Source: Marsupella aquatica
Taxonomy: Eukaryota > Plantae > Marchantiophyta
Length of the DNA stretch: 64,000 bases
Reading direction: 5' to 3'
Assembly (NCBI GenBank): GCA_973895155.1
Contig: OZ316896.1
Span: 19,146,754-19,210,753, forward strand
In this document: piece by piece, positions 27,006 through 64,000 of the stretch
How positions within the stretch are numbered: position 1 is the stretch's first letter
Layout of the letters: the number at the start of each line of letters is the position of its first letter
The notes under the pieces: model-generated
What the model saw: only the letters and a program-made list of their open reading frames with translations
Databases searched by the model: none
What the model was told of the DNA's origin: nothing
Made by a program: the position numbers and the translations under genes

Positions 27006-30000
27006 TTAATCGTCATTGTCATCCTCTTCAGATTCTTCAAAATCTTCATCCATCTCATCATCATCATCATCCTCCTCCTCCTCCTCTGGACCTTGTTCTC
27101 CCTTTTTCGGTGTCTTTAAAACTACTGGCTGACCTTGAGATTCTGCAAGGTCTCGCATCAGCTTTGCTTGATCGGCTGCTTTTCGTTCTTCGTCCTTCCT
27201 CTGCTTGTCTTCGCGTTTGTTCACTAACTCCACTCTGCGCACAGAAAAGTTTTCCAAAAATCAACTTCAGAACATTCCAGGACTATGACTGCGGAATGTG
27301 ATCTATCTTATTCCGTCGTGGTAACTACCCTCGCACCTTTTGCAGAACGTGGACGAGTTGGCCTCTATCCCAGACAGTAATACGCAGACATTAGCCAATT
27401 GCTCCTACTCTGAAGAAAATCCCCTCTGCTGAACGCTGGATGATGTTCAGTAAACATGGAACTTTATGCCTCCATTTGTCATAGTGGTAATGCAGTGATC
27501 GCCAAATCCCATCAGAAAGAACTCTAAAAGGAAGGACGAGATACCTGTAATTCTCCATATAATCAATTGCGCAACCGTCAACAGCTGTAAAAAACTCGTC
27601 CATCCCAGCTCCAGTGATGGCAGAGACCCCGACACTGGACAAATTCTGGTAAAACTCATCCAAAACCAGGCAGAGACTTCTGCTTAAATTGGATGCATAC
27701 GATTTGTCATTCTCAATCGCTGCCTGAAACGCTTCAAAGTCCTCCATCCACTGCACAACCCAACGCGCATACAAACATTTAGGAGAACTCCCAAAGATCA
27801 CCTTACAAGTGCTTCAACATATTGGTTACTTTTCGACGTGGCTAATGATCACATGAAGAAACCCAAGTTGCATGCAGGCAAATCAAAATGGCAAAAAATA
27901 TGCAGACTTATGAATCTTCGTTGCATCCTTACATGTGCTAGTGAAAAGCTGGAACAACAACGCACATTAAGGATACAATATCAACCGACGCGTAGAAACG
28001 AATAAATATGGGACTCTAGGTAGCATCAGCAGCAGCATTTCCAGCCAAATCAGTATCACAATCATGGACTTCCTTTCAGCTGTATATGGAGTGTGTACAG
28101 GTTTTCCAGAATCTTCGCATCAATCAAGAACTGAGTAGACGTATTCATCAGAGTATATACTCAGATTTAATGCTTTCGGATATAAGCCAAGCCTTCTCTT
28201 ATTGCTTGACTAACTGACACCTCGTCGTAGAGTCTAGTTTGCTCTTTGATCTCTTGTGCTCTGAGGGAAACCCTACTGATACACAAGTGGCGAGCTGACT
28301 ACCGCAGAAATAAAACTGGAACTATGAGAAATGGGAGTTGATCGATTGATATCAGGAAACATAACATGCACCAGTATAATTAGCAGCCTCACTTCTTTCA
28401 TGTCAAATCTGTCTCGTACGAACCACAAGCGGACTTCGATGACGAGCAACACAAGGGTTGAGGAAAGAGTGGCATCATTGATTTCTAGAGACTTAACATT
28501 GTCACACGCTAACATTTTTCAGTTCAATAAGCAGCCTCACTTCTTTCATGTCAAATCTGTCTCGTCCGAACCACAAGCGGACTTCGATGACGAGCAACGC
28601 AAGGGTTGAGGAAAGAGTGGCATCATTCTAGAGACTTAGCATTGTCACACGCCAACATTTTTCTCTGACAAGAATTTCTCTAATCTGAACCACAAACGCA
28701 ATTACCTTAAGAGCGAAGCCATGATGAGCTACATCAATCTTGTTGAACGCCAGAAGTAGAGGAAGTCTTGTCTTGTATAGAATTCCACATGCGTAAAGCA
28801 TATTGCTCATGAATGTAATTGGACTGGAAGAGCGCGGTGTGTCCACAACATATGTCACCACTGTTGGGAAGGTTGAGGCGAAGGATTCAGTTACGATGGC
28901 TCCAGAAGCAGACCAAGTAAATATTTCAATCTGTCCAGGGGTGTCCACGAGAACATAGTCTAATAGATTGGCTCTTTTCTCCACGAGCTCTACCACCTGA
29001 TAACCAGAAGATGATAGGCTCAGAAAGATAAAGGGCTGACAGGAATTGAAGTCTATGAACTGGTAGTCAAGCAGAGTACTGCTCTAGCTGTTCTCCACGA
29101 AAATCACCTAACTAAACTTGTGACAAAAAGCGACCCTGCGAAAGTGAGTAGTGAAAACATACGGAGTCAGACATTCTTAAAGGAAAACGAGTAAAAAAAC
29201 GAGCTCATGGTGAAATAAATCCGGCAACTAGCACAAGGAACCGAAAATACGATCAGCTAGACGACCAAAACAGACTCTGGAAAACCACAGCTAGAAGACG
29301 GTCACTACGGAAGCAACGGAACAAAATGAGAGCTAACGCAAAGTGGTTCAACAGCCATAAGGATACGAACCTCGGAAAACTGTGTAACAAACAGATTCAG
29401 AGAAGTGAGAATGCCTCCATTGGGCCCCAAATTGTACTCCTTCATTACGTTCTTGTAATTGACAGTGTCCCGGATATCGATGTTCGCAGTAAAAGGCAGA
29501 TTCGTCACCGCAGGGTCCAGATTCAGCACATAGCCTCGCTTGCCACTAGACTGGCAATGCGCCACCAGCCGGTGCATCAGTGTTGTTTTTCCACTCCCTG
29601 TGGAGAAGACCAGGAGACGAGAATCAAATTTCTTGAGTACAATAACAAGTCGTCTTGGTGAGCTTCTTTTTGAAGCAAGAAAATGGATTCATCCCGCTAA
29701 CGTTCTTGAAACCGAAAGCCTTAACCCTAAACCAGAGTAGAATTTGCACAGTTCTTTAGAGCTTCAACAAGACCTAGAGCTCTATTGTCCGTTAACCCAT
29801 AACAAACCCAAGAGCTGAAGACGCATAGTCCCTTACGCACACCCTGGACGCAGAGCTCAATTCGCATCATTGTTTGCAGACCCTAAACCCTAAGTTAATG
29901 CTCCCCAGTCCTTCGTCCATACCCTAAACCGGAAGCCAAAGCTGCAAGGTAGGCCCGCACAATAGACAGACCTAGATTTGTGTAGTCAACCGCTCACAAC

Positions 30001-31410: not shown

Positions 31411-31717
31411 CCCTTGTGATTTTAAATTTATTTTGCTTTTTGCTGTCTTTTCTATTGTTTGTGTGTTTTTTATGACTCCAGATGGCTAGCGAGATCGCTA
31501 GCCAAAAGAGGAGTCCCCAAAATAGATGTTATCAAGCAGTTTATTGTTAGTGAGGCAATTGCATATAGAAAAATTAGGGGTCATGTGAGGAAACTTTTTG
31601 CTCATGCGAGGAAAATTTCTACTGTTTCCTCAAACAGTAGAAATGATCGCAAAGACAAAGCACCCCAATGAAGGGGAGGAAAAGAGGGGAAACGGCCCTT
31701 CTTTTCTTGATTAGTCA

Positions 31718-32700
31718 CAAGCTCAATACCCTTGCCTTGCACAAAAGATGTCATGACGCCCAAGATGTCATTAAGAGATAAAATGTCATGTCACCCACGA
31801 TGTCATTAAGAAAAAAGATATCATGTCACGATGTGGTTGAGACAAAAGATGTCACTATGCCCGAGATATCATTAAGAAAAAAGATGCATGTGTTAAATAT
31901 AAAATTATTATTAAGTACAAAATGATCCATAAGTAAAGTGATATTGTTAGTCATATATGTTGTCAAGTCTCTGTTGCACAAAACATGTTTGCATAAATAC
32001 ATCGTTGCATTTACAATATTGTCAAATAAAAGATATTGTTAAGTAAAATATGTGGTTGCTCGAATGATGTCATTGCGCAAAAGATATAGTTTACTAAAAG
32101 ATATTGTTCGGTGAAAGATGTCAATGCATCATAGATGACGTTGTACTAAAGATGTAGTTGAAAACGATCATGGTGCAAAATATATCTTTGTTAGAAAGAT
32201 CTTATTGTGTAAAAAACAATTGTCGATTGAAAGATGTCATGACACAAATAGAGGCGACAACCACCACCAAAGTACAACAAAATGAGAATAATTTCTTTAA
32301 TTGTTTTTGTAATTTATATCTTTTAAAGCCTTCCTTCTTTTTCACTTTTTTTTCTTGTCTTTGTCTTTGTCTCATTGATTAAATTGTGCACTATTTTTTG
32401 ATTATGTAAAATATATGTCATTAAACTCCTCTCATGATAGGATGCAGCACTTCCTTTGCATGGATGATAAGGCATGGGGCATAGTATGGCATGGATGGTA
32501 GAGGGAGGAGGATGGGGTAGCATGGATGGTAAAGGGAAGACTTTGTACTTTTCTTGTTTGGAAAAGAGTGTTCACACAAAACATAATTATTTTCTCTTAT
32601 TCCTTTCTCTTTTACAGTTCCCTTTTTTCAATTAAAAAGCCTCTCCAAATTTGAATGACGACCACTTCAAAAAGTGGCGCAACTCTGTATTATAGGAGTT
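31718..32700 (-). mobile_element. Degenerate non-autonomous Helitron, same family as 3541-5029, inverted
   Basis: Minus strand ends catcttttgtgcaaggcaagggtattgagCTTG|T (compare ttttgtgcaacgcacgggtattgagCTAG|T); shares ctcattttgtt.tacttt.gtggt and ttgcgcca...agtggtcg.cattcaaat blocks and the aagatgtc-type repeats. Confidence 0.7.
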
Positions 32701-35254
32701 AATAGTGGCTAAGGTAAGTGTGTAAAGAAAAGATGTTAACAATATTCTTTACATTAAATTGGGCTATTTAGATGTCACTAGATTTAAGGGTGACCATTAG
32801 ATTCTTGCTAGTAGGCCTGTGCATAGTTGGGAAACTGTGTAATAGGGAGTCTCGAAGAAGGGCCATAAGGGAAAAGGTATCATGGGACACCATTTGTGCC
32901 CATAAAACACCTTATGACCAGACTTTGCAGGCCATTGGTGACAGGGGGTATGCATTGACCCATGCCATAAGGGGTGAGTTATGTTGAACTATGACGTCTT
33001 CCTTCATGACGATACAACCATGACTCATACCATGCTCACGTAGTTGACACAATCCATACGTGGTTCACCTCTTCTCCAAGGCTACGTCCACACGAACATA
33101 ACAACTTTACTTCAAGAGTCGTCGAACACACAAGCTCTCTCTCTCTTCCTCAAGTTCCTCCGTTACAATGAGCAAGCACTACATACCAGTGGCTTACACT
33201 AGCCCTGGTATATGCAAGGTCACACACAACTAACCTAACCTCAGCTAAGTCCCTAACCGAGGTTAACCTAATTGCCGTAACCTTTGAGTCACAAGACTAA
33301 GAGCAATCCTTAACAAGTTATGGGTACTTCCACTCAGAGTAATTGCTTTTGGCCCGTCCCCGTCGGACAAGCCCAAGCCTGTTACCTTGACGAGCAATCA
33401 CGATAGAATTTTAATAATACACAATGATTGGCATGTCAATAGTTTCCCTGGATGACGCGATGTTGTGGGGACTTTATGTTGTGATCACACAAATTCAACT
33501 TAGTCTAAGAGTTAAAGTTACGGGTTTGGGTCAGCGGTTGCGGCACTTTCTTGTGGAAGCCAATTTTGGCCTCCCGCTACTTTTCTAATCGTTCCCATAA
33601 CTTAGTCCTTCCGGCCACCTCGTAACTAGTTACGGCCATGCTTTGAGATGTCCTAATGAAACATAGAAAAACTATCAGATTTTTGCCATATTTTGGGCAG
33701 GTGTATCTAGCAGAAATTTGCCACCAAAACAATTGCTGCCTAGTAGTGCAGTAAGTGAGGCACCCGGACAAAACCTTATCGGGGCCCTGAGTGAGGCACT
33801 GGACAAAAGCTTTATTGGCAACCTATGCATGCCCACTTTGAATCAATTCCCCAAAAGGTAGGCGTAAGACTTTGCTTGTGCAAGTGTTTTAACAGGCAAT
33901 CTTTGCCAAATTTTATTTTTATTTGTTTTGCCCTTCCATTAATGATCAGACTAATATTAAGCCCAAATGGACAGAGGGGTTTGTTCTGCCCATCCCATGG
34001 AGCGCCTAAAGTCATCACCCTATCTACACCTAGGAAAAAAGGTGTCCTGCTGGTGGAAAGACACTTCACCGTTGCTAGGGACTCAAATACATTTTTTCAG
34101 GCACAACTACGTTTTTGGTAAAGTTGTGCATTTATGGATAAATCTTGTTTATTTTTGTTCAATCTTAAAGTTTTCAATATGTTCTTTGATGTCCATTCTA
34201 TTACAATTCTTTATGTTTACAATTTTTGAGACAGTTTGCTCCATTCATGACAAATGCAAAAATGGTAAAATTTATACCAGACTCTTTGCTTTTCAGAAGG
34301 ATATATGCTGTGAGTAGTTTGGACATGAGGGACAAATGAACACTTTTGGGAGCATGCCTTAGTTTTGTGAAGGGCAAGTTTGGACATGGGGAGTGACTTA
34401 CCATTGGGTGAAGTAATTAAAACTGGCTGCAATTTTTAAGAATCTACTTAAAGGTGATATCAGTCAGAACCATAAAAGATACTACTGTAGTGTATCTAAC
34501 ATAGATGTTATGTGCCAGTCCATCTAAGTTTCACAGAAAAACTCTAGGTCCATCTGGGTTTTATTTGGCTGATAGACCTACCCACCTTTTTGTGCCCAAA
34601 GTTTGCAAAACTGTCTTTAAAACAAAGCTATCCACAAACTGGCTTAATTAGGCCGACGCATGGCTTTTTTGTGACAAAAAGTGCATGAAATGAAGAAAAC
34701 TTTCTTGGCAATCAATTCCACGCAAATTTGTTTTTTCAAACAAGCAGCAACATAAGAAAGTGATCAGTTTATGAATAAGTGTAATTGCTTTGAGACTTTG
34801 TCCAATGCCCACTAAAATTCCCCAACCAAAATGTTTTCTCATTTATTTGTCTTTGATGCAAGCTCCTTTGGGAAAGTGACCACGACTTGGCTACTATTTC
34901 AACATGATTTGGCAAAGCGGGCGAGATAGCCCCCACATACCTCAAGACCCAAAGGCACCCCAGACCAGGTAAGCTCAGGAGCATGTAGTCATCTTCAAGA
35001 GCTTTCCAACCCATCCAAGAAGTTCTCCAACAGACTTACTGTTTGTCGTGACACATAGAGTCGGTAGCATAAGATATCGAGACATGTATCATATGCATCC
35101 AAGTAACACAACAAAATAGAAAACCAGAAAGATGATACATGGTTGTCCATTAACACCAAGATGAAGAAATGTTGGGGCATGAAAGTAAACCCCTGTACCC
35201 CCCAGACTTGAGCATGGAAATGGTCAACGAGCTGAGGATATATGAGCTTGGTGA

Positions 35255-35747
35255 AGGAGAACAAGAAGGACAGAACCATAGCCCTTCCGGAACTTGTGGA
35301 AGCTCAGGTCGCAAACAAAAGAGATGGTAAGTAACCACCGTTGCAATGGTCACACAACAACATCTGGTCAGCATCATCAATCCTGTGACACACCTTATAG
35401 GGATAATCCACCGGAGGATCCAAGTAGAAGTCACAATGGTAGGGTCCAAGTTAGGCAAGTGACAAGGGGCACAATTCTCAGCATGATCTTTGAGGGTACG
35501 GCCATCTGCTCCCTGTAACTCCAACACACATGAAGGATAGATGCACTTAACCCTGAGAATAATGCGACTGGTGGAGGTATCCAATGTGTCACTAGGCTGG
35601 CGCTGAAGGTAAACAAAATCACCCACATCAAACTGCCTCACCTTGGGCCTGAAGCTCCCTCCCCGTGTGTGCGCATATCTGAGTGTATCACGATGTTGGG
35701 CAATTGCTAGGTTGTCCATAGCCATAGGCATGACTCTACGAAACAAG
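35255..35747 (-). pseudogene. Gypsy integrase C-terminal region plus C-terminal PHD finger (frameshifted)
   Basis: LFRRVMPMAMDNLAIAQHRDTLRY..FDVGDFVYL.., then DYP(Y)[44 protein letters not shown] (C4HC3 PHD; first Cys reads TAT; a 4-bp duplication at 35327-35334 shifts the frame). Confidence 0.85.
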
Positions 35748-35975
35748 CACTAGAAGAAACCGAGCCATTCTGAGACCCAGCCTTACATGACTTGTGTGAG
35801 ACCTTTGAAAATAAGTGACTCCAAGGTTTAGGGTGTCATCTTTGTTACATCTTCTTGACTCACTTTTGGTGAAGTTCTGGGAAGTCATGTATTTAACTAT
35901 TGGGAAAGTTGCTTCTGTAACTGAGTTAAGGCAAGTATATTGAAGTTATATAAGTGACCATGACTTACATGATTT
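35748..35975. repeat. CACTA left TIR and subterminal repeats (core GTGACT/AGTCAT)
   Basis: catgacttg, aagtgactcc, ttgactcac, aagtcatg, aagtgaccatgacttac. Confidence 0.75.
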
Positions 35976-38802
35976 CCTTGCCCAATACATATGATTTTGG
36001 ATCCATCATATTAATCACATTATGTCATGCAATTATATATAGTTACCTCCCTTTGCTTTAACCATCACTGAGTTGCTCTTTATTGTTCCCCTGTAAGAAA
36101 GTATACATGACATTTTTACCCTAATTGAAGTTTAGGTAAGTAGGGCAAATTTGTGATTCTAGCTAGACAAGAACCAACCAAATTTAAGTTAACATTCATG
36201 TACACGGCCGCAACTGAGTTCAAAAAGGTGTGAAAATTTGTGCCATGCCCCCAAAAATAATGATGCACCCTAAACCCTAATACTCTACATACATAGTTAC
36301 CTTAAAAAAGTCACCACAACCAATTAGTGGTACTTGTCACATACTGCTCACACACATATTAAAACTCACTTCATCCACTAACTCATTTTAAAAATTTGCT
36401 CTGCATATATACCCCATAATTAGCCAATATCAAATGGAACCCCCTTCATATGGGAATATTGAAGGGCCCAATTTAGGACCTCTTTTTCCTTAAGTGCACA
36501 ATGCAATGCCGTTGCATCAATTTCTCTATCGGAAGCCCTCTTCCAATGAACCATGTTGCGCAATTGCAAGTTGATACAATTGGCAATAGCTTTTGCCCTA
36601 AACTTTTGACTGCCAAAAGCTTTTGTGGAGGGACTTGGAGAAAGAGAGAGTGCGCCCGCAAAGTGAGAGTCTTGTTGTTTCATGAGCGGGAAAGTTTTCA
36701 CATCTTGTCAAAGCAGTCGTCTAGTGTGCGCTTGCTTGGGTGAATCCTATCGCGCAACTTGCTATCGAGTTGCATCCCTTGCACACAGAGAGGTGAAGTG
36801 TTGTTGTTTGGCAAGCGGGAAGGTGCCACTCTCACATTATGAATTCCATCCTAGGTTTACCCGAGTGAATCCTATTGACCTACGACCTTCAAAGAAGTGT
36901 AGTGACAACTTTTGGTGTGCTCGCTTGCCCACTGTGGCCTATTCACGAGGAGTGGTCTTGTGCGGATTGGTGAGGTGGAGGTGGAGCAGTACTGTGGACA
37001 GGGGGCTCTGAAGGTTTATAAGGTGCATGCGGTGGGGGTCATCCAGGACATCATCATCGAACAAAGGGACGACGACGATTGTGAGTATGAGTTTGCATTG
37101 TTCTCTACTGGGTTCCGAATTGAGTTTTGAGCTGTGGTGGCTTAACAATGGTTGCGGGTGGGACCTCCCAGGGGCAAGGGGGCGGCGCCGAACGTTCCTA
37201 GGAGGATGCAAAATAGACTTGTGCTACATTAGGATCCACATCTGTGTCTCTGCCTTGCCTTATTGATGGGAATCTACAGTGCATTTGGATTGGGAAGGTG
37301 AGAGCTGTCTATAGAATGCGTCGAAGCTGATTTTTGTTCAGATTTGGTCTTATGGAGAAGTTGATTCTTCTCTGCATAATGCTGCCTTGCTGAGCTGCAT
37401 TGGGCTATGATGCGGGAGGTATTCATCAAACGGCAAGCTTTTGGCTGCAGCTACCAAGTGTAAGTTTAGGGAGTTGAGAGCGGAAGCTGCCAATTTGGAG
37501 TTGCGAGTGTTCAAATTTGAGTGAGTTGGGGTAGTGAACGTTGAGCATCAACCTGCAGGGAGGTGCGACAGAAGTCTACTTCTGTGGCAGAGTGAGCTGA
37601 GCAAGTGCAAACTACGGGAGTGGAGCATCGTGGCTGCAACATTGACCGGGACTTTTTTTGCGTTGGGCACTGTGAGTAAGGCAGTCTACGGAGGCGCGAA
37701 AGAGTCGCGAGGAGTCGAGTTCAGCTACGGCAGTATTCACTTCAGTTGTCTCAATGTGGTTGGCGTGAGCTGCAGGTGAGCTTAGCTGTGTGCACATTTC
37801 ATGTAAGTCAGGTGGTCGGTGTTTTAGGCATTGCGGAACTTGATTGACCACCCCATGGCTAAGGTTTAAGGTGCGGACTACAACAAATATGTGTTGTTGC
37901 TGAAAGTGTTGGTGGTGAGCGACAACTGGTATTGTTTCAGCTAAAGGGAGCACATTGGAGCTTGTGTATCCATGACCTGCGACCGATTGCGGCTGCCTGC
38001 TGTTACAATTGCCGAATCAATCACGCACCCAATCTTGCGGGCAGACACAACTTTGCGGGAGTGTTGAAGGTTTAGGGTGAGCAACAGCGGAGAGCTCATT
38101 GCTTGGTGGCAGGGTTGAAGGTGGATGATCGGGCTGCAAGGCCAACCGGGGACTTGTTTTGCATTGAGCGATTGCTGCGGATTGCTACGCAGCTTCAGTT
38201 AGGGCGGCTTGGTGCTACATCGGCACAGGTAAGGCTGCAATCCCCTATCGACGCGGACTCACCTCGTGACTGCAAGTATAGTTGTCTAGGTGATGTATGC
38301 ATTGCGTGTTTAGGGTCTAGGTGACATCGCTGCTAAGCAAAATTTGTGAGCTACCTAGGTCCATTGCCGAATGTTGCTTCCTTTAAATTACCTGGTGCCT
38401 GCTGTTACAATCGCCTGCTCAATCATGCACCCAATCGCCTGGAGCTCATTTGCCTGGAGCTTCATCCGTCAGATTCAAACTGTTATTGCTGCTTTGCCCT
38501 TTTGCCATGGGTTGCCGGCCTACCGGATGCTATCAACAGATTAAGAACAAGTCATATCCTAAGTCCCGGTGTTGCAGTGATGTCCCCGACCCTAAGATGC
38601 TTTCCAAACTCATCTTTCTTGTTTCCTGTTGCTGCTGATGTATGTATGTTCTCCCCTATTTTTGCTTACAGATTGGTCTCTCCACACTTCTTGCTTGACA
38701 TGATTGTTTTGCTCCTCCCTGTATCAGAACATGCCTTGTGCCCGGCGGTGGGGTGGGGGGGTGAACAGACGACCTTAAGGTTCACTACATTTCTAGGAAC
38801 TG

Positions 38803-38963
38803 TGCATCTTTCAGCTGATTTTAGCCGCAAGTTCCCTTGCTTTCCCCTGTTTTTGCTAAGATCCCTCCCACTAATCACATGCATCTTTCAGCTGATTTTA
38901 GCCGCAAGTTCCCTTGCTTTCCCCTGCTTTTGCTAAGATCCCTCCCCACTAATGACATGCATC
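38803..38963. repeat. Tandem duplication, 77-bp period x2, inside the CACTA
   Basis: tgcatctttcagctgattttagccgcaagttcccttgctttcccctg.ttttgctaagatccctccc starts at 38803 and at 38880. Confidence 0.92.
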
Positions 38964-40153
38964 CTTTACTTTTCTCGGTGGCCCGTGCGCCTGCCTTCCT
39001 ACTTTCGTTCTTATGGACTCTCCTTAGGTTTTCATTCACCTGGTTTTGGACTTTTTGCTCCGGTGGAATCTGTCTTGACAACTTGTGTTTGTTCTAATTG
39101 TTAATATCTCAAGAGGGTCATCAACTAAGCTGAAAGGAGTCAAAGCTAACTACAAGCTAGCAAATACAGAGAATGCTCCCAAGTCGAGTCAGGAGGAAGT
39201 TACTAAAACTAGACCTTCACAACTCTCGAAACTAGAAAGTGAAATTCAGCGTGAGACACGTAGCTGAAGGCCACAAGGATAACTATATGGCCACGCTGTC
39301 CCCCATTCAAGTCCAAAGTCCTCTTCAGATTGTCTGAACTCCTATTGAATGTATTGAATAATTATTTCATCACAGAAATTTTCAGAACAAACACGGAAGC
39401 ACCAGGGGGCTGAGGATTAGGTATTGAGGCTGAAGACATTGAGGTCATAAACTAGGTGTGGTTCGGGTGACAATGTTAGCAACTGATGCTTCTTCAGGGG
39501 AACTTCCCATGTGCAGTTTATCCACACATGATTGACTTTGGTTCTTGCTGTTTTTCTTTTGGTGTACTCTTGAGTTTGGTGTCACTCTATCCTTTCCTGT
39601 AGCCTCGAAATAGGAACACACCTGCTTAGTGGTCCCCAATCGCCCAATGATTTATAATGACTGTGTCTAGGTGATGTATGCATTGCGTGTTCATTCCAGA
39701 AGAATGAATATGTACACTTTGCACAAACCTGGACAGATCGATTTTGAATGTTATTTATCTGAGTTTCTGTTTGTGAGCTCTGACTTGGAGCCTTAACATT
39801 TGTGTTTCTGTGGGGCTGAGCAGAGTTTGTTCAGTCTAGAAGCTGCTGTACTGAAGTGATCAGCCTCCGGCTTGGAGGTGAATCTTCAATTTTTTGTGGA
39901 TCCGAGTGACTTCTGTCCAGCTGAGTTTTGCTTTGTCGGGACGATTGTGTTTGGCTAAGATGCTAGATTGTGGCTTGTCTTCTTGCTTCCAGCTTGTGTA
40001 TTTTCAATTAATAGAAGTTGGGAACGAAGTGATAATTGAATTTCCTTATATTAAGCATCTTCACCTAGAAACTCAATACATAAACTCCAGGATTCCCTCG
40101 GGACATAAAATGAGCCAAATTGTCTCAAAATTGGGAACCTGCACCCGCACTAC

Positions 40154-40496
40154 TCAAACAATTGTGTTGGGCTTGGTGGCCTTGTAAGTCTTCTTTAGCT
40201 TTCGCAATGGAGGTTGAATCTTGCAGTACGTCAAGGGGAACTTGATCTTTGAATCATGGAACTGCTTGGTACTTTCTCGCTTGCACAGAGAGACAGGGAC
40301 TGTCGTAGTCTTCATGATCTGGATGCAAGGGAACCGAACTCTATGACAAGAAGCCATCTCATCATACATCTGCTCTGCAGCTCCGTTTCTTGTGGTATCA
40401 CAATATTCCTTGTACATGTTGTGATAACCTGTACGACTCTGATACGTGGACCCAGATACCGAAGTTCTTAATTGTGGTGGGCTTCTTTTTGAAGAT
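40154..40496 (-). pseudogene. RPL18A: Captured terminal exon of 60S ribosomal protein L18a (eL20), frameshifted, inside the CACTA
   Basis: cag|[16 protein letters not shown] / [74 protein letters not shown] matches the plant L18a C-terminal half; begins at an AG acceptor; earlier exons not seen. Confidence 0.92.
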
Positions 40497-41504
40497 CTGG
40501 TAGACACATTATTCAGCATTTGCTAACTTCGAAACTAGAAGGGTAACACATTAAACAACAGAGAAACTCATAACATCCTCCTTTGGTCCTTCAGAGTCTG
40601 TACTTTGATTCTGAAGTTTGACTGAGTTTTTGTTTACTAAAAGAATGTGACTGTGTAAGAGTTCCGTTTGGCAGTGGATTGGTTGAAGCACTTCATGCTA
40701 GTGTGTTGTCCACAGCTCTTCAACCAGCTTTCGTCTTCCTTGTCTTTCACCACTTACGATGACATCAATTCAGCTAAGACCATAGAAGGTTCCAAAGCAT
40801 CTAACTTGTAAAATCGCATTTTGTTACATCAAGGACTAAGGTGTTGGGTGCCAAAGGAGACAGCACAACAAACACGCTGAAAAGACTTCAGGACTGGGTT
40901 CAACAAGGTAGTGAAGGTGCTTAGAGCCATAGTAAGTATGCATTCTGTATCTTTCTCTATTGATGTGAGCTTGTGCATAATGGGAGTTGTAGTTGGCAAG
41001 AGTTCCAAATATGAATAGATCCAGAAGTATGTGATCATGTACTTGCTCTATAAAGTTCTGAAGATATAAGCATTTTCTGTTAGACCAGGCAACTTGGGAG
41101 TTGGTAAGTGTCACCTGCATCTGAGGGGCTACACCGGGGCATCAGTGGAGGTTCACTTGCACAACACGACAACCAGTGAATTTTCTCTCTGCTGCAACCT
41201 GCAAGGTGAGACTTTCGGTCTTTCTGGATGAAAAAACAGGAGTTTAATATGATTGATATACATGTCCGTCGAGAATATGGGTTTATCACCAAGCTCTTTG
41301 TCTTAGGAAACTCATAAACTCAGAATCAAATATGTACTATGCACGTTTCATGCTATGTGTATACTATGACCTGTAGTTGGAACCAAGACAATGAGTGGGA
41401 ACTGATTAGTTTAGGTGGTTGCTGTTGGCGAGGCAAGTCGACCTCCTGCTCACCTTGCTCATCAAAGGACGTGAACAGAGGACATCACAACGAAAGCAAC
41501 ACTT

Positions 41505-41954
41505 ATGGTGAGGACCCGCAACGCTGAACATGTGCGACTTGCACGCAAGGCAGAGATGTTGCGCCTTGAGTATGTCAGACTTGGGATCCTTCCAGCCCAG
41601 TCTGCATGGTACTTTGAGTACCCTGTTGTTTCCAGGAACAACTATAGCCGGCCTCTACCTGCTTCAGTACCCTTCCCGACATCCTTGGTATTTGTGTCTC
41701 TTGTACATGACCCGCCACAAATTAGGTGCCAAGGGTGTGTACACAGTTGCCAATATGACTGTCCTGCCTGTAGGGCTTCTGGCCCAGAATTGGATGACCG
41801 TTCTCTTGGATGCCGATTTTTGCACAGAGCACAATGTATCATCTGGAACCACTCGCCATCCTGCAGTGTGCCTGGTGATGTCACTTGTCCTGCCCTCCCA
41901 GACCCCACCACCGGTGACTTTGGTGTCTACACATGTTTGGATCACATGCTCTAG
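41505..41954 (+). CDS. CACTA-borne 149-aa Cys/His-rich ORF, possible divergent PHD/RING-type zinc finger
   Basis: Intact ATG-to-stop ORF; ligand-like pattern CQGC..CPAC..CRFLHRAQC..YTCLDH; co-oriented with the transposase. Confidence 0.5.
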   Translation: MVRTRNAEHVRLARKAEMLRLEYVRLGILPAQSAWYFEYPVVSRNNYSRPLPASVPFPTSLVFVSLVHDPPQIRCQGCVHSCQYDCPACRASGPELDDRSLGCRFLHRAQCIIWNHSPSCSVPGDVTCPALPDPTTGDFGVYTCLDHML

Positions 41955-42569
41955 AGGACCACTTGTCACACCGCATGCACAGACCAGATACCATTGACCT
42001 ATAGCTTAACACTCTGACTTCAACACAGAGGATATTTACTTAAAATTTTGATGTATGAGCAATTTTGGGTCCAGGGTTTAGGGTCAACAGTACATAACTT
42101 ATATCCTATTATGCCTGCACTAAGCAAAATATCCTAATTTAAGAGGCTAGAAAACTCGCATAAAAGTCTCTATTGAAAGACTGCTTTCATGACTGCTTTA
42201 ACCTGGTGAACATTGCAACGTTGAATGAATTAATGGGCCATGTGATAATATGCAAAATGATTGATGCCTCACTTATTTGTCTCAGCCACTATCATAACCT
42301 ATTTAGGATGTATAAATTTCAACCCTTATGACACTGCTTCATACCAATCCTCTTTGAAGAATGCCTGTTTTACATGTGACGACTATTGTATGTGATTCAA
42401 ATGCATGAAATGTTGTTGCAGATCTCCTTTGGTGAATCATAGCCACAATTAAAATTGAGGTGTTGGTGGAGAAATTGTATTAGGGGATCAGTTTTGTGTG
42501 TGGGCTCAACATACCAAAAGTATGTGTGCTCTGCATCCTTGTGTGGCCATTCCAATTCATTGCAGTAGC

Positions 42570-42712
42570 AAATGCCTTTGTACCTTAAATGCTAAATATA
42601 TTTTACTTTCTGTGCAGTCTGCTAAATTGTAGAGTCTATCTAAATGCCTTTGTACCTTAAATGCTAAATATATATTACTTTCTATGCAGTCTGCTAAATT
42701 GTAGAGTCTATC
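42570..42712. repeat. Tandem duplication, 72-bp period x2, just upstream of the PHD ORF
   Basis: aaatgcctttgtaccttaaatgctaaatata..ttactttct.tgcagtctgctaaattgtagagtctatct starts at 42570 and at 42642. Confidence 0.92.
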
Positions 42713-42724
42713 TCATGCGCAGGC

Positions 42725-43405
42725 ATGGCACGGCCTAAAATTCAAGCCAAAAAGCGTGTGACAGAGGTGAGAAACACAGGTGTACTTGGGGCAGATGCTA
42801 CTAACTTCTCTGCAAGTCAGATTTTCCAGAAGGCAGCTCATTGTTGTGCCATTTGTGACGATGGTGGGGGCCTGGTCATTTGTGAGGGCCCTTGCATGAG
42901 GCATTTCCACCTCAACCCGGAGTCTGACCTTGCTGCAGAAAACAACTGTCCAGGGGTGGGCCTCCCGTCAACACACCAGGGAGACTGGATGTGCACTTAT
43001 TGTTTGGAGAAGCAGGCTAAGTGTGCACAGTGTGGGAAGTTGGGGTCCTATGAGGGCTCTGTTGATGCTGCAGCAAATGTTAGGAAATGTCCAGACCGTT
43101 TTTGTGTGAGATTTTTCTGTTTTGAGTGTTTGCCTGCTCATGCCACAGCTTGCCCACTTCATAGGTGCAAGGCATGTGGTGAGCATGATGATGACTACTG
43201 GACTGACATAGTCCACTGTGCTAGGTGTCCCACTATGTGGCACTATCATTGCCTAAAAGATCATCAAGCAGAGGGTTAGGCTTGTGACAGAGAAATCTAT
43301 GATCACTCTGCACATGGTGTTGATCGATGGATATTTTATTGTCATCGCCATGCCATTGATCCTACCTCGCGCACTCCTGTGAGAGATCACATATCTTGGC
43401 TGTGA
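42725..43405 (+). pseudogene. CACTA-borne stand-alone EDM2/NSD-type composite PHD-finger module (226 codons, one in-frame TAG at 43277-43279)
   Basis: CAICDDGGGLVICEGPCMRHFH..WMCTYC..KCAQCGKLGS..KCPDRFCVRFF..CPLHRCKAC..HCARCPTMWHYHCL; the frame continues past TAG to WIFYCHRHAIDPTSRTPVRDHISWL, resembling the EDM2 motif IYC..HEID....TPVRDH. Confidence 0.85.
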
Positions 43406-43997
43406 AGCTGAACATTGTACATGCACAGTGCACCTGATGTGGATGTACTATTTTTTGAGATTGCAGAGATTCCAATTTTGAAAAGGAGTTGGGTAGGCGA
43501 GTTTATATAGGCAGCACTTATCTTGTGCTCTGGCGTCAGTGGCTGGGTACATGCCTATACAAACTTATCCTTACAAGCCTTCTTGGAAGTATTTAGGCTG
43601 AGTGGTCATTTTCATAAACACTTTCATCACACTGCTAAATTAAAATAAGACTTCTAAGTTGTAAGCGTATAAATTATCAGGCATGCAATTAATCAAATTG
43701 CCCTATAAGTTTGTCATTGAATGTATCCTCCTTTACAACAAAATATGTATGTGCCATGACAAGTTGGTTGCACTTCATTTCACCACGGATATGGATTTTG
43801 TAGTATATATTCAAACAATGTCCTGCATCCGTGCAGGTGCCTAGTACGTATTGTTCACATATCCCTTGTACCTATCAAAATCGGACCTGAGCACCAGTGG
43901 GCCAGATCAACTCAAAAAGCAGGAATTTTGTTGTCCTTGTATTGTCAGGTGAACCCATTCTTCCAAAATTCACTGTCATCACGTAGGGTGTGTGTAC

Positions 43998-44870
43998 ATG
44001 GAGCCTGGTAAACGTAGAAAGTGTGACCACCCAGCAGTGTTTACAGGGGTCAGAGCGATTTTGGTCCATGGCCAGCATGGGTTGACCAAAGTGCATTGGC
44101 CAACTGTACAGAAACGATTCTCTGAGCTCCATGGCACTGTAGTTCAGGACATCACTCCAGAGACTACACATGTTGTTGCAGGGACATGGCTATCAGTGAT
44201 AAAGAAGTGGTCATGGTCCTACATGAATTCTGCAATTACTAAGCAAGGCCTAAAAGTAGTTGAGGCCTCTTGGATCACAGATTCCATAGCACATAAGATT
44301 GTACAGGATACTGAGCAATATGAGTTGTGGGAGGATGAAGAAGCTACTGCATCAGCTTGGGCTGAACAAGAAGTCTGGGAAGCAAAGGCACGGCTTGCTG
44401 ATCTCCAATATGGACCTGTACTCAACAAAGGACAGAGCTCTACAAGGCTGAAGAGTATGTTGGCTGAGGAGACGAAGCAACCAACCCCCATTCTGAAAGG
44501 GCTGAGCATGGTATTTGTGGAGGCGGGAATTGGAGAGGTTAAGTGCAAAGTGTACAAGTCCACAGTGCTTGACCTAGGTGGGACAGTGGAGGAGAATATA
44601 ACAGAGGACACCACTCATGTCATTACTAAGTCATATCCCAAAGCCTGCCGCAAGTTTGGGAAGGGAGACATTCGCTTTTATGTCATGTCCCATAATGTGT
44701 TTGTGGTTTCATATGCTTGGCTTGTGGAATCAGTAGCAGCTGGGAAGCGTCAAAACCCAATGGACTATGATCTTTTTGAGGCCTGGCCACGGAAGGGTCA
44801 GGATCCTTACAGAGAGGACTATGAGACAACAAGTGAGGAATGGGTCATTAGCGATTCTGAATCAGAGTGA
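43998..44870 (+). CDS. CACTA-borne tandem-BRCT domain protein (290 aa, intact, intronless)
   Basis: Two BRCT-pattern repeats: FTGVRAIL..HGTVVQDITPETTHVV..VVEASWITDSI..EQYEL and LKGLSMVFVEAGIG..LGGTVEENITEDTTHVI..VVSYAWLVESV..MDYDL; N-terminal basic PGKRRK (NLS-like). Confidence 0.85.
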   Translation: MEPGKRRKCDHPAVFTGVRAILVHGQHGLTKVHWPTVQKRFSELHGTVVQDITPETTHVVAGTWLSVIKKWSWSYMNSAITKQGLKVVEASWITDSIAHKIVQDTEQYELWEDEEATASAWAEQEVWEAKARLADLQYGPVLNKGQSSTRLKSMLAEETKQPTPILKGLSMVFVEAGIGEVKCKVYKSTVLDLGGTVEENITEDTTHVITKSYPKACRKFGKGDIRFYVMSHNVFVVSYAWLVESVAAGKRQNPMDYDLFEAWPRKGQDPYREDYETTSEEWVISDSESE

Positions 44871-45303
44871 GGAGTAGTAGCATCAGTTTGGACACAAGTT
44901 TTTTTGTATAATTCAGATCATTGAAATAAATGTGATCTTTGAACTAATGTACCTTGTTATGGTTGGTGGCAGTTGGGCTTATTTTACTGTTGGCGGATTG
45001 TTGTTTCCTGCTGCCTGGGGGTGTCACTGTAAACGTACATGCAGAGGCGGTACATTTGAGGACAGCGGAGGAGGTGGTGACACCCTCCAACATTTAGAAA
45101 TTTTGTGTCATTCACTTGACAATAGGTACACTACTTGCGAACCTGTTTTTTTCTTTTGGGGTGGTTTAGGGTTTGTGAGAATTTAGTACACGTTATGTTA
45201 ACTCTTTTGGCAGATACAGTCAGGGATATATGGAACACAAATACCACCATTAGGCATCCTTGTTCACTGCTGTCCATGACTGCAGAGCTCCCAGCCTGTT
45301 ACA

Positions 45304-48300
45304 ATGCACCCTGGTCACCACCCTCCCCAGACCCAGCCCAGGGCACAGGCACTGCCTTTGCATCATCCCACAAGGATATCACGCCATGATAATAAGCTTT
45401 GGCAGCGTGAAAGGTTACGAACCAGACTTTCAGGAGCCAGTAGGATGAGATGTCCTTGTGCAATCTGCCAAGGATCCCGTACCAAGGGTCTGAATGAGGT
45501 TTGGCGGCATATCGCGGTTCATGGAAGAGATCCACGACATCGAGTTTGGAATGATCCTGTAGAGGAAGATTCTTCCGACGAGGAGTGGAGGTTAGAATTT
45601 GATGCTGCCAATGCTGCAAGACGGGCAAGTGAGGTTCTGCCTGGTGCATTTGAAAATGTTGTAGCTGGTCTCTGTGGGTTGTCAGCTCTCCAACGGGATG
45701 GTGCTCAGGCAGCACCACGTGACGAAGGAATTCATGTGGAAGAGATGGTGAGAGACATCTTCCAAGACTTGGATGCATTTCATGATGGGCTGGACAATGA
45801 AGAGGATACGGCTGCAGATGCAAGTGTGCCCCCTGTCGAAGAGCCTCTTGATGAGTTTGAGATAGGGCAGGAAACCCCTGGGCATGATGGGATGTTTGGC
45901 TCTCCCCTGCAAATACAGGAAGGCAGGAAGTCTTTGTACCCCGGTAGCAAATGTTCTAAACTGGGATTTGTCATCATGTTCCTGAACATTTGCGGCAACC
46001 ACAATGTCCCCAACGTTTTGGTTTCTGAGTTGTTGGCATTCTTGCGAACAACTGTGCTACCAGATGGTAATATTTTGCCCAAGAACATGTACGAGGCAAA
46101 AAGATGCATATCTAATCTTGGATTGAACTATGATTCGATCCATGCCTGTCCTGATGGGCATGTTCTTTTCAGAAAGGAGTATAAAGAATCGTTGACATGC
46201 CCTAAGTGTGGGAAGCACAGGTATCGGAACTCAGGAAAGTCTATGGTTCCCGCCAAGGTACTTCGTCATTTTCCACTCATTCCCAGACTTCAGCGGATGT
46301 TCAGAAGCCGTGCCATCTCGGAGATGATGACTTGGGCAACTGACAAGAAAAGTGATGATGGGCTACAACGACATGCTGCAGATTCAAGGCAATGGAAACT
46401 CATAGATGAGATGTATCCCGAATTTGCTGCTGAGCCGAGGAATGTCAGGCTTGGGCTGTCATTGGATGGGGTAAACCCATTTGGAGACAAGAACAACAAA
46501 TTTTCATGCTGGCCTGTAACTATTTTGAATTATAACCTTCCTCCTTGGATGACTACAAAGCGATTTTTTGTTCTGATGGTCCTACTGATACCAGGGCCAG
46601 ACAGTGCTGTATCTGCCAACATAGATGTGTTTCTGGCTCCCCTAGTGGAGGAATTGAGAAAGCTTTGGGAGGAAGGAGTTCTCACATATGATGTCCTACA
46701 GAGGCTTGGGAGGTTAAACCCATTCATCCTTAGAGCCATTGTCATTCTGACTATAGCTGACTACCCAGCCCATGGGATGATATCAGGCCAAACAACAAAA
46801 GGATATTGTGCTTGTACTATCTGTGGGCGCAATGTCACCAGTGAGTACTCCAGAGCCCTGCAAAAAGTGATATACATGGGCCATCGTCGTTTTCTGAAGG
46901 CAGATCACCCTTACAGAGAAAGACAGGCACTGATTGCACACTTTGGCAATGAGATTGAGCAACGTGGACCCCCGGCACGAGTGACCAAAGAGGAGATCAG
47001 GCAGTGGGGAGCACTGAGGGATGACTATATCAAACGAGGGGGCAGGGAAGATGGAGTGAGTGATCCAATAAAGCGATATGGTGTAAAAAGACTGAGCATA
47101 TTGGACTTGGAGCTCAAGTACTGGAGGGTAAGCCTCTTGGAGTTGATGCTAATTGGGATACATGTTTTGGTTCAGAGCATGTGCATTCATTTCGAAGAGA
47201 GAGACTAAACTTGAGGCATTTCCTGACGCTTTTGCATTGCAACGATGCAGGAGTTTGAGCCAAGCAAACATAACATTGATGTTATGCACATTGAAAAGAA
47301 TATTTGTGAGAGTCTACTCAGATTCTTGTGTGGAGAGAAAGACACTGGTTCAGTGAGATTGGATCTTGAACAGAGGGGAATGAAACCCCATCTTTGGTTG
47401 AGGCCACATGCCCACAGAGCTGATGTGCTCTTGAAGTACCAAGTGCCCTATGTTCTGACAGACACAGAGTGGGAACTATTTGTGTAGAGGTTGAGTTCTT
47501 TGAAGGTTCCTTCAAACTATGGCAGTGCTTTCAAGAAGCATATCATGACTAGAAAGCTTGGTAGTATGAAAAGCCATGACTACCATATGTTGATGCAACA
47601 GGTGTTGCCTTTATGCCTGAGGGGCCTGTTGCAGAAGCCTGTTCGTACTGTGATCATGCGACTCAGTGATGTGTTTCGTCGTATTTGTGTGAAGGTTTGG
47701 GATGAAACACACTTCCCACAACTGACAGAAGATGTCGCTCAGGTGCTGTGTGACCTGGAGATTTATTTTCCTCCCGCATTTTTTGATGTCATGACCCACC
47801 TACTTGTCCATGTTGTGGAAGAGCTACACCAATTTGGGCCTGTGAGTGCTCGTTGGTTGTACCCTTTGGAACGGTACATGAAGCTACTCAAAGGTCACGT
47901 GAGAACATATTACAAACCTGAAGCAAGCATGGCTAAAGGTTACATCAAGGATGAGACTCTGGGATTTCTGACCGAATACATAGCACAATATGAGCATGTG
48001 AAGACCAGGGTGTGGAATTCTGATGAGGAGGAAGGGGTGGTAGGTGAAGTACTGGAAGGGGCTGCAACCACAAAGAACCTGACCATATCTATGAGAGACT
48101 TGGCACATGACTTTGTATTGCACAACACTGTGGTGATGGAACCCTGGATACAGTGAGTGCATACATGTGCTATAATCCAGTTCATGAGCTTAAATATTGT
48201 GTTCGTGTGGTTTTCTCCTTCAGCCTGTTCATGTTTACCCAAGCTAATGCTGTGTGGTTGTTCGTTCAGGGAGTATGAGTCATTGAAGGCGGCCCATCCC

Positions 48301-49035
48301 ACTGCAGGAACAACTTTTCCAGGTTTCATGGAGTGGATCAGAGTGGCAATTAGAGAGCATCACGAGACCCACCCAGACATGGATGCAGATGTTTACCTAC
48401 TGTCTAATGCCCCTAGCCTGAAAGTGAAGACTTACAAACGGATGAGAGCATATGGGAATCACTTCCGAGTGAAGGATGGTGACAGTGCCTACAGGGTGAC
48501 GAATGATTGCGGGCTCATCACTGTATTTGAGCAACAGAGCCACAATCACGACAGGGCCTGGATGGAGATGGGATATGTGGGAGAATTAGTTGACATATGG
48601 GCTCTGGACTATGGGGCGGTGTCTAGTCCTGTGATTCTTATGAAAGGTTCATGGGTGCGGCAGGATTGGCTTGGTAACAGGGCTACCATGAAGAGAGACA
48701 ACGACGGTTTCTTGCTGGCCAATTTCAGAGGGAAATTGCCCGAATGGTCTGAGCCATTTGTGTTTCCTAGTCAGGTGGAGCAAGCTTTCTTCCTGGATGT
48801 GGAAGACTCCCCAGGTTGGCGTGTAGTGTGTCATAAACAGGCCAGGCAACGCCGGATGGAAGGATCAAACCTTGAGTTTCATTTACACTCTCATAGTGCC
48901 TTTGATCGTCGGCGTTCAGACCAAGTGCCTGTAGTTCATGATAGCGGGGACTTCATTCCTGTGACAAGGGTAGATGCATTTGCTGAAGGAGGCGAATTCA
49001 GAGATGTAGATGCCAACAGTGTGCCTGTGCCATGA
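45304..49035 (+). pseudogene. CACTA TnpD-like transposase (transposase-associated, Transposase_21, DUF4218 and DUF4216-type regions), 3 exons, one in-frame stop
   Basis: RCPCAIC; IHACPDGHVLFR..CPKCG..KVLRHFPLIPRLQRMF; RNVRLGLSLDGVNPF; NYNLPPW; IDVMHIEKN; MKSHDYH; FPPAFFDVMTHL; RWLYPLER; EPFVFPSQVEQAFF. Exons 45304-47127, 47251-48152, 48270-49035; TAG at 47485-47487. Confidence 0.93.
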
Positions 49036-49191
49036 GTAATGTGAATTGTTTGCATAGACATTAGTGAGGGGAAGGATGTGTAATAAAGTAATTCTGAAGC
49101 AACACAGATGTATGGATGGATGCCTGGTGATTGTGGTTGCATTGTGTTATACGGGGTGACCATAGATGACATGTTTTTGTGGTCCAGTAGG

Positions 49192-52100: not shown

Positions 52101-52898
52101 GAGAATAAGACAGGTGCTACAGAGAAGAAGTATGAGAACCTGGCAAATACTCGCTGTAATTTAGAGGCAACAAAGTTGCAGTCTGTACAAGCAACTTGTT
52201 TGACAGAGGGCAGTCAACCATGTTTGGATGAGGATGACATTGGCAAGGGAGTGGATGATATCAATGTTGGGGCAAATGAGGATATCAGCAAGCATGACAA
52301 TGATACCATTGAGCCAGATTCATGCTATGTAGATCTTGACTCCATTGCAGAGATAAATGATTTGCAGAATGTATCATTCTCAATGACAGGTGTGCCTCTT
52401 GTTGAGATAAATCCAACCAAAGAGTTAGTTGGTATGACACTCCCAGGTGATGAACCTGCTACTGTGACAGTCCTAACAGAGGAACCTACTGAGCCTAGCT
52501 TCACTATTGTGAAGAGAGGAAGCATGCGCACACGAAGCAAGTCTGCTGGTGGGAGCAGAGCCACGTCAAAGGTTTCATACAAACCTCCAAGAACAGTGCT
52601 GGCAGAAAGATCTAAGGTGGAAGTGGGGAAAGCACCTAATGCTGAGGGACAAAGTGGCTTGTTAGCTGTTGATGAGAGTGGAACACGAGTAGGATTTGCC
52701 AGAGTGCAGGTTGGTTCCACAACGTTCCATGGCAAGAGGATTCCCCCAGGTTATTCAGTAGTGTTAGTCACATTACTAGTGAAACCTAAAGCTGTCCTTC
52801 CCATTCCAAACACAAATGATGATCCTCCTCAAAAGACACTTGGAGATGCTGCAGGTTCTTTGGTATTATGGCCAAGCAAGTTCATAGAGGATCCATAA
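49192..52898 (+). CDS. CACTA TnpA-like (ORF2) multi-exon gene; exon structure only partly resolved
   Basis: N-terminal CEYERKAMEQRAYVKAKIAELDL; Ptta/En/Spm-like WARLVAYFVTDASKKKS..ARLSVQNPNLTGRTG; C-terminal FHGKRIPPGYSVVLV..LPIP..TLGDAAGSLVLWP typical of plant CACTA ORF2; several GT-AG flanked segments. Confidence 0.75.
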
Positions 52899-53394
52899 CA
52901 ATGTCATGCCATTATTTGTTTGTAGTGTGAGTCATGTTATGTAGATTTTAGATGTCAAGAAGCAGTACAAGAATCATGTCCTCTTGGAGATTCATAGTAT
53001 CATGCATGTGCTTTCAGTTATCTCATCCTACAGTCATCAATTATGAGTTCCTGTTTTGTCTAAATTACATTGATCACATTGTAAACTATTCCATTGGAAT
53101 TCAAATGATCTTCATTTTTTAGCAAGATTGTGATTGTGTTTAATTCTTATGAATGTTTTATGTAGGATTTGCTTATATGATGTTTTGTTTCATGTGGATG
53201 TCATTCATGCTATGTTCATTTCTTGTATTCAATGTGTTATATTTCTAAAGTTAGAACATCAGGTTTCTATGTATTGTAATGTCGAGTGCTCTCTCTTCTT
53301 ATGAACTGTCCCTCTGTGTTCATTAGTCATGGTTATAACTTGCATGTGAACCTTATTAGTTATAAACATGAGTATATAGAGTCCCAAATGGTTC

Positions 53395-53753
53395 TGTTGT
53401 GTGACGCGGGCCAGGGTCTCCATTGGTCTCTCCTGTGACACTAAATAGTCACACGCTAGTCGTTGTTGAATGCGGGTAAGTCATGTATGTGACTTACGAT
53501 GTGACTCGCTGAAGTCATATTGCAGTCACGTCGAAACAAGGCTAGACTCCACAATAAAGTCACAGATCAGTCACAAATGGGTATCAAGCAAGTTGCAAAG
53601 CCCAGTATCAATAGTGACTTCCATTTTTTGGTCTCAACTTTTGCAACTCCAAGGGTCACAGCGTGGGTCAAGTCACGTTGAGTCACAATGAAGTCACATG
53701 AGCCAAAATGAGTCATATATTGCGGTCTCAGTTCACCTCGGATTCTTCTAGTG
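53395..53753. repeat. CACTA right subterminal repeat array (core AGTCAC/GTGACT, both orientations) and right TIR
   Basis: More than 10 copies, e.g. tagtcacac, aagtcatg, tgtgactta, cagtcacg, aagtcacag, gagtcacaa, aagtcacat. Confidence 0.85.
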
Positions 53754-53756
53754 AAG

Positions 53757-56044: not shown

Positions 56045-56189
56045 ATTACAGAGTACCTCTCCCCCCCAACACTAGGAGTGAAATGTAGAGTGGAGAGGAT
56101 GGGTAAATGTACTTCATTAGGGTGCCAGGTAAGAACTTCATTAAGGCGAGAGGCTGGGTCACCCATAGTAGGAACAGTATGCATCTGGA

Positions 56190-63829: not shown

Positions 63830-64000
63830 GGCATCATAGTAGTTGATGAGGGATCTGACATAGAGTTCAGTGTTCCCTCCAGCAAGGTAATCACATCTCT
63901 AGCATTCAACTCTAGGTCTTGGCAACTAAACAATGGAGTAGTGAGAAATTGGTGTGTCATGCCTGAAATATGAAACGGAGATGGTACCATGTGATCAGCT
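63830..64000 (-). pseudogene. Probable gag-protease linker of the Gypsy element, running off the window edge
   Basis: Coding-like open frame MVPSPFHISGMTHQFLTTPLFSCQDLELNARDVITLLEGT on the same strand, directly beyond the putative solo LTR; no diagnostic motif. Confidence 0.4.

Follow-up and report, generated by a model that had tools for sequence, protein, structure and literature searches.

A degenerate PHD finger at the integrase C-terminus of a dead, DNMT3-bearing Gypsy-type retrotransposon in Marsupella aquatica

The choice of landing site by LTR retrotransposons is understood mainly for chromodomains, which chromoviruses carry at the C-terminus of their integrase. A 64,000-nucleotide stretch of the Marsupella aquatica genome (hereafter the window) raises the question of whether another kind of chromatin reader can occupy that position. 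The initial annotation of this DNA proposed that a Gypsy element ends in a PHD finger, and that the same polyprotein holds a DNA methyltransferase (DNMT) encoded some 21 kb away, placing a histone reader and a DNA-methyl writer in one element. Two matters need settling: firstly, whether such scattered pieces are parts of a single element, and secondly, what the finger would do in members of the family that remain active. The pieces are listed below in the order of the window; P#### labels denote protein relatives and L### labels metagenome DNA loci.

35044-35213, minus strand: remnant of the 3′ end, with a G-rich polypurine-tract-like motif (35213-35198) and one B-type terminal repeat
35399-35261, minus strand: PHD finger (C4HC3), degenerate, from six-frame translation and relatives above the PF00628 cutoff
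35420-35744, minus strand: integrase C-terminal part (end of the long helix, predicted five-strand beta domain, linker), 67-70% identical to P0001-P0005
35745-35747: left copy of the AAG 3-bp target-site duplication of the CACTA element
35748-53753, plus strand: CACTA DNA transposon of 18,006 bp nested in the integrase, from its inverted ends and its Tnp2-type domains (PF02992, PF13960, PF13952 and PF03004)
53754-53756: right copy of the AAG 3-bp target-site duplication
53757-54510, minus strand: integrase HHCC and DDE core (PF00665), with stops and a frameshift near 53790
54919-55780, minus strand: reverse transcriptase and RNase H, frameshifted (PF00078, PF17917, PF17919)
56164-56785, minus strand: C-terminal half of a DNMT3-like cytosine methyltransferase (ENT, RxR, motif X)
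56791-61137, minus strand: nested 4347-bp TG...CA insert that splits the DNMT and holds a 629-aa ORF
61143-61525, minus strand: N-terminal half of the DNMT, frameshifted (motif I FGG; motif IV, with the catalytic Cys in GWECQ)
61871-62218, minus strand: aspartic protease (PF13975, PF13650), matching P0326 residues 43-158
63850-63972, minus strand: fragment of the gag-protease linker, matching P0124 residues 571-612 (E 4e-5)

The resulting order is protease-DNMT-RT-RNase H-integrase-PHD, and both the HHCC and DDE integrase and the PR-RT-RH-INT succession are those of Ty3/Gypsy elements; gag and the 5′ part lie beyond the window, as the linker fragment shows. The interruption of the integrase is accounted for by the CACTA transposon, whose termini form a 17-bp inverted repeat (16/17 matching) beginning CACTA, flanked by the AAG duplication. 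Relatives P0003, P0005 and P0002 align on both sides of it, with 10-14 residues between HSPs. Since a CACTA insertion opened this gap, the PHD and the DNMT belong to one element, now dead; that the two share an element had been claimed on first inspection. The integrase does resume as first described, with the exact break at 53753/35748 instead of 53757/35747. The methyltransferase 21 kb away is indeed in the same element, but is itself split by the 4347-bp insert, which is flanked by a 5-bp duplication, CCCAG (56786-56790 and 61138-61142), with P0124 residue 1079 mapping on each side of it. The closest named integrase is that of Calypogeia fissa (P0005; 90% identity over 237 columns), and the C-terminal half of the DNMT is about 70% identical to the PF00145-bearing proteins P0121-P0124. 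Stops and frameshifts occur in every pol domain, about 100 codons of the reverse transcriptase are absent near 55770, and the CpG observed/expected ratio is 0.13-0.37 in the coding parts of the element, compared with 0.72-0.74 in two neighbouring genes.

Other features of the window deserve mention in their own right. The CACTA transposon also carries a frameshifted RPL18a fragment in which no intron was seen (40157-40522, minus strand), an ORF with an NSD-type PHD (42698-43279, plus strand), which makes it a second PHD-bearing transposable element in the window, and a tandem BRCT ORF (43953-44870, plus strand) just upstream of the transposase. The 629-aa ORF of the 4347-bp insert (57895-59784, minus strand) has no Pfam match above cutoff; its only lead is a sub-0.9 Atlas match to streptophyte clusters, one of which has PF04195 in 11% of its members. 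The insert also contains 87-bp tandem repeats (60508-60740) and is possibly a giant solo LTR or a Tat-like derivative. At 62450-63815 the gag-protease linker is interrupted by about 1.3 kb of AT-rich sequence with TGCATGCA-rich tandem repeats, and a search for a target duplication around it gave no clean one. Inverted similarity of 70-88% links two blocks rich in repeats, 3228-5030 and 31717-32694, which lie 27 kb from each other and may be copies or termini of a further DNA transposon; between them, at 27391-29688, is a gene for a GPN-loop GTPase (PF03029).

The finger itself follows the integrase C-terminal domain on the minus strand, as had been described, and its C4HC3 character is recognisable, but it neither occupies one frame nor keeps its first Cys, which is Tyr. 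Seven of the eight zinc ligands are present when it is read across two frameshifts, near 35420 and near 35333, which flank its N-terminal half and cancel each other. That half (35417-35331, frame -3) is 83% identical to relative P0003 over 29 residues (E 1e-13), and frame -1 holds both the integrase C-terminal domain and the C-terminal half of the finger. The profile check suggested at the outset thus has two outcomes: no Pfam family was found in the unshifted 199-aa ORF (35153-35749), so that the PHD of the window is visible only frame by frame or through its relatives, and the PHD of P0003 scores 43 bits on PF00628, against a cutoff of 24. The segment at 35399-35261 is a mutated PHD at the integrase C-terminus of a dead Gypsy-type retrotransposon.

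Understanding how general this arrangement is comes with its own difficulties of sampling. With the unshifted window ORF as query, 147 proteins were matched at E <= 1e-5 and 959 cluster representatives at E <= 0.001; PF00628 was found in 110 of 120 listed out of the 147, a count biased by a query that held part of the PHD. Likewise, 51 of 52 proteins with both DNMT and integrase carry the PHD, which is not our main evidence because most of them came from PHD-containing queries. Two other counts were made without selecting for PHD. For the first, DNA loci were used because a protein search with the DNMT gave mostly short ORFs, unfit for judging co-occurrence. Among 80 metagenome loci selected by DNMT, 32 had at least 3.5 kb downstream and were kept (the other 48 were too short), and integrase with PHD was found in 31, nearly always about 3.2 kb past the DNMT; the exception, L053, carries an insert and ends early. 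This bears out the co-occurrence of PHD and DNMT that the initial annotation had singled out for checking. For the second, selected by integrase core, 65 of 120 listed proteins had room after the core (55 did not), and 62 of these 65 have the PHD; of the three misses, two are apparently frameshifted and the third shows a Cys/His cluster that has diverged.

An unbroken ORF encodes protease-DNMT-RT-RH-INT-PHD in both P0326 (1783 aa) and P0332 (1946 aa), and it is to such relatives that the phrase 'one polyprotein' has to be limited, because the window copy is dead. Named relatives among the matches listed include Calypogeia, Sphagnum, Marchantia, Riccia, Klebsormidium, Closterium, Pleodorina, Volvox and Haematococcus, and the fusion of integrase to PHD is family-wide, from liverworts to Volvocales. 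A finger absent from other copies, or out of frame with integrase where copies are intact, had been thought fatal to the proposal; the finger proved to be present throughout the family and in frame in intact relatives. The chromodomain (PF00385) was found in none of 120 + 120 listed matches, nor in Pfam scans of relatives, and judged by that domain the element is not a chromovirus. No unbroken frame from DNMT to PHD was found in 15 loci checked out of the 80, and the close family is therefore seen only as decayed copies.

Layouts of 67 proteins with RT, RH, INT and PHD in one ORF indicate that the DNMT moves or is lost and the PHD stays fixed on the integrase. The DNMT lies between RH and INT in 25 (the chlorophyte type) and before RT, as in the window, in five; three have none although 350 residues or more precede RT, and 34 begin too near RT to judge. 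Long DNMT-less ORFs that keep the PHD are P0089 and P0103, both with protease matches, and P0111. Whichever position the DNMT takes, the PHD comes after the integrase C-terminal domain in all the proteins examined. In an integrase tree (a quick version, midpoint-rooted and with long branches, used for grouping only), DNMT-less proteins are spread over two or more distinct starred groups; P0040 of K. nitens sits in the starred group with the integrase of the window.

Chlorophyte-type relatives have further modules. P0178, P0066, P0069, P0068 and others show a Tudor-like domain past the PHD (PF21743 is weak in P0068), followed by a tail of about 200 aa modelled by AlphaFold2 at pLDDT above 90, for which Foldseek returned class I SAM methyltransferases (KsgA, TcaB9 and type I/IIG restriction-modification methyltransferases; E 2e-4 to 1e-3). 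The tail of P0069 has DPFAG and TSPPF motifs, and 49 of 58 tails have a degenerate PP motif. On these models, chlorophyte-type elements would hold a PHD, a Tudor domain, a DNMT3 and a second methyltransferase fold. A G-patch (PF01585) lies between DNMT and integrase in the chlorophyte-type P0036, P0087, P0093 and P0213.

Across 22 distinct Sphagnum-like loci, PHD and DNMT have pairwise dN/dS of 0.38 and 0.37, respectively, and RT, RH and INT of 0.32-0.34; such values are a modest, weak sign of constraint because singleton changes in the same loci, which postdate insertion, already give 0.47-0.60. Conservation of the ligands is the stronger sign, as the full C4HC3 pattern with its Trp is kept in 200 of 231 proteins that have integrase tail and PHD.

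What such a finger might bind can be approached through its class. The cage position is that of the Trp two residues before the His ligand; in the 200 complete fingers it is Gly in 179 and Ala in 12. These residues place the family PHD in the cage-less class, in keeping with the original description. The Trp of the full pattern is present in 200/200, Asp follows Cys3 in 189, Leu or Ile precedes Cys3 in 180, and Val or Ile stands at W-5 in 156. PHDs that read K4me3 have an aromatic cage, whereas BHC80 and AIRE lack one, and in KDM5A PHD1 residues D312, L310, V330 and W335 are needed, binding R2, T3 and A1 of H3 (bioRxiv 10.1101/715474); the mapping of family positions onto these four residues is ours and not that of the cited paper. 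The acids that contact K4 vary, with Asp at C1-3 in 97 of 200 and Glu or Asp at the equivalent of KDM5A E305 in 79. The 59 PDB sequences matched include KMT2D/2C, Lid/KDM5 PHD1, WSTF, BAZ2A/B, ATXR5, CHD4, DPF, KAT6, UHRF1, AIRE, PHF21A and similar fingers, with none from ING, BPTF, TAF3 or PHF2, and over 53 columns the modelled PHD of a relative superposes on BAZ2B at 1.4 A. KDM5 PHD1, BAZ2A/B, WSTF, AIRE PHD1 and BHC80 share with the family the C4HC3 spacing, the Asp after Cys3, the VPxGxW A1 pocket and the absence of a cage Trp; the family PHD differs from these host fingers in being borne by an element, in its less constant K4 pocket acids and in that its binding is predicted. Since the H3-tail pockets of KDM5/BAZ2-type fingers are kept and the cage tryptophan is absent, the family PHD likely binds H3K4me0. 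In the AlphaFold2 model of P0001 the catalytic core is followed by long helices and a five-strand domain, and a linker modelled at low confidence joins these to the PHD (pLDDT 82-88). Foldseek places its core and tail on retroviral and Ty3 integrases, and the PHD thus appears appended where chromoviruses carry their chromodomain.

We therefore lean, with some reserve, towards a role in targeting: in active members the PHD would probably bind the free, K4-unmethylated N-terminus of H3 and so tether integration outside H3K4me3 promoters. Protease processing would leave the PHD on the mature integrase; the finger would then bind H3(1-10) K4me0, and its hold on nucleosomes would bias insertion away from H3K4me3 promoters, with the DNMT perhaps methylating the cDNA or the new copy. 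Precedents for targeting by chromodomain and MBD are cited in PMC6673714.

It is worth noting, however, that a finger that binds H3 could serve outside the choice of target, by aiding the loading or reading of nucleosomes on extrachromosomal cDNA or circles, or by recruiting host factors that transcribe or shield the element. We regard this as unlikely, although it survives best among the alternatives, and one reason for entertaining it lies in the ends of the elements. Where Ty3/Gypsy elements are expected to have two complete direct LTRs, relatives have direct repeats that are split, in the order A...PPT-B-A-B; 6 of 80 loci show the whole arrangement, and nine more show B-A-B with the 5′ end out of reach. 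The elements start with TG and end with CA, B1 meets A2 at a CA-NN-TG junction, and such ends suggest an atypical DNA intermediate. Ten distinct insertions with two ends gave an exact 4-bp duplication, within the 4-6 bp of Ty3/Gypsy elements, in six, one mismatch in one, none in one and misplaced ends in two; the seven target duplications read show no preferred sequence, which speaks to sequence only and not to chromatin. The window copy has only its 3′ CA end in view and keeps one B repeat, which ends in CA at 35044 and aligns locally with L003 at a score of 56 (maximum 42 in 500 shuffles), and neither the Gypsy element nor the 4.3-kb insert showed paired LTRs or split repeats when the window was compared with itself by blastn. 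As an observation apart, L003, L014, L022, L048, L066 and others are DDE-integrase elements that combine split repeats, 4-bp duplications and CA-NN-TG inside the 3′ repeat block. PHDs are, moreover, a common accessory domain in many Chlamydomonas transposable elements, including integrase-less ones (PMC8557442). Against such a role stands the constant place of the PHD after the integrase C-terminal domain while the DNMT changes place, and targeting through integrase remains the reading that we prefer.

A second alternative would couple reader to writer: in a Pol complex that is unprocessed or has been assembled, the PHD would guide the DNMT3-like enzyme of the element to H3K4me0 chromatin or activate it there, and each new copy would be methylated where it has landed. 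PHD and DNMT do occur together in nearly every DNMT-selected locus with room, as counted above, and the DNMT directly precedes integrase in the chlorophyte type, where a DNMT-INT-PHD product is possible for that reason. PF00145 in P0121, P0124, P0326 and P0332 marks a DNMT3-related domain within a Gypsy Pol ORF, the best solved matches of its profile are DNMT3A, weakly (E 0.006) yet ahead of M.HhaI, and the element-borne catalytic domain gave no match to an ADD or PWWP of its own. Motifs I, IV (Cys), VI (EN) and VIII (RxR) are present in the window DNMT and in most of 45 full domains. Yet motif IV is often EC, not PC, in relatives; the PHD is kept in DNMT-less ORFs, which fall in more than one group of the quick tree; and in the lineage of the window RT and RNase H lie between the two modules, such that protease processing would likely part the DNMT from INT-PHD. 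KnitGypsy-Dnmt3 of K. nitens showed no de novo methylation in yeast, a result that its authors call inconclusive, and they propose cDNA methylation for DIRS elements (PMC5890265). The analogy first drawn with DNMT3 enzymes and their ADD domain is weakened by the DNMT-less relatives, by the intervening RT-RH and by the yeast result as that paper reports it. Coupling is accordingly unlikely overall, though conceivable in the algal arrangement, in which the DNMT sits next to the integrase. The methyltransferase would most probably be an independent module carried in the same particle, and not an enzyme aimed by the PHD.

Less probable still is that the PHD is a structural or non-histone module, contacting nucleic acid, Gag or a host protein, with no role at histones. 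Many PHDs of the nearest solved set have ligands other than H3K4 or bind weakly, the KMT2D fingers for example, and the variable acids of the K4 pocket fit such a role, but the residues of the A1, R2 and T3 pockets are conserved from Volvocales to liverworts. That the PHD is a host fragment or part of another element, brought beside integrase and methyltransferase by chance or misassembly, might be suggested by pieces 18-21 kb apart and a finger needing two frameshifts, but is refuted by TIR and TSD at both junctions, by the continuous alignment of single relatives and by the family-wide INT-PHD fusion.

Among known systems the nearest is KnitGypsy-Dnmt3 of Klebsormidium nitens, which like the family here joins a DNMT3-related, intronless domain to a Gypsy-type Pol within one ORF and has, by the legend to Fig. 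4c, a DIRS-like repeat layout that matches the A...B-A-B of relatives (PMC5890265). That report concerns one charophyte, whereas the family here extends to bryophytes and chlorophytes with two DNMT positions; the word 'PHD' has no occurrence in its text and three supplements, although its Fig. 4c may draw one (PMC5890265). The listed relatives include two INT-PHD proteins of K. nitens, P0040 and P0044; comparison with KnitGypsy-Dnmt3 was made through its published description, and the window copy is a dead member of a widespread family of the KnitGypsy-Dnmt3 kind. EpiLTRs, as described in their preprint, similarly join a chromatin reader to DNA methyltransferases in LTR-type elements, but with a chromodomain, DAM and a DNMT that is sister to DNMT4; they are stated to be distinct from streptophyte Gypsy-DNMT3 elements, and a term search of that paper did not find a PHD finger (bioRxiv 10.64898/2026.05.21.726589). 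Chromoviruses, too, bear a histone reader at the integrase C-terminus that may guide insertion (PMC6317226; Gao et al. 2008, cited in PMC6673714), and no mention of a zinc finger or methyltransferase was found in the searched text of Neumann et al. 2019 (PMC6317226). They differ from the family here in having a chromodomain instead of a PHD, two full LTRs instead of split repeats, and H3K9me instead of a predicted H3K4me0 as the mark. REM1 reportedly encodes its PHD together with a chromodomain in a separate antisense ORF, whereas in the family here the PHD forms part of the integrase protein and is accompanied by a DNMT. REM1 of Chlamydomonas, PHD-bearing CR1, Chlamys and other elements are alike in having a retrotransposon PHD as a possible histone reader (PMC6673714, PMC8557442); PHDs are described as widespread in retrotransposons, with histone recognition suggested (PMC6673714), and PHD-TE fusions have been reported (bioRxiv 2021.11.30.470311). 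PHDs in retrotransposons and DNMT3-bearing Gypsy elements are thus already in print. The layout that combines PHD with DNMT3 was not found in the literature searched, nor was a paper on such a Gypsy element in land plants; subscription papers, Repbase, theses and figures lay mostly outside that search.

A more ambitious picture, which we hold as improbable on present sequences, is of an ancient, green-plant-wide lineage of split-repeat Gypsy elements that evolved target choice independently of chromoviruses, used the PHD as an ADD substitute for its own DNMT3 and, in an algal branch, added the Tudor-like domain and second SAM-methyltransferase fold to make a four-module epigenetic kit. The surprise is limited, as the window copy is dead and both this kind of element and transposon PHDs are already in print. 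In the papers found, Gypsy elements with a DNMT3 were described from a single alga; the finding adds land plants to their range, and intronless copies there could be mistaken for host DNMT3 or PHD genes. If the targeting role that we favour is true, a PHD fused to integrase and reading H3K4me0 would be a second, independent solution to the problem of where to land, avoiding active promoters through the absence of their mark.
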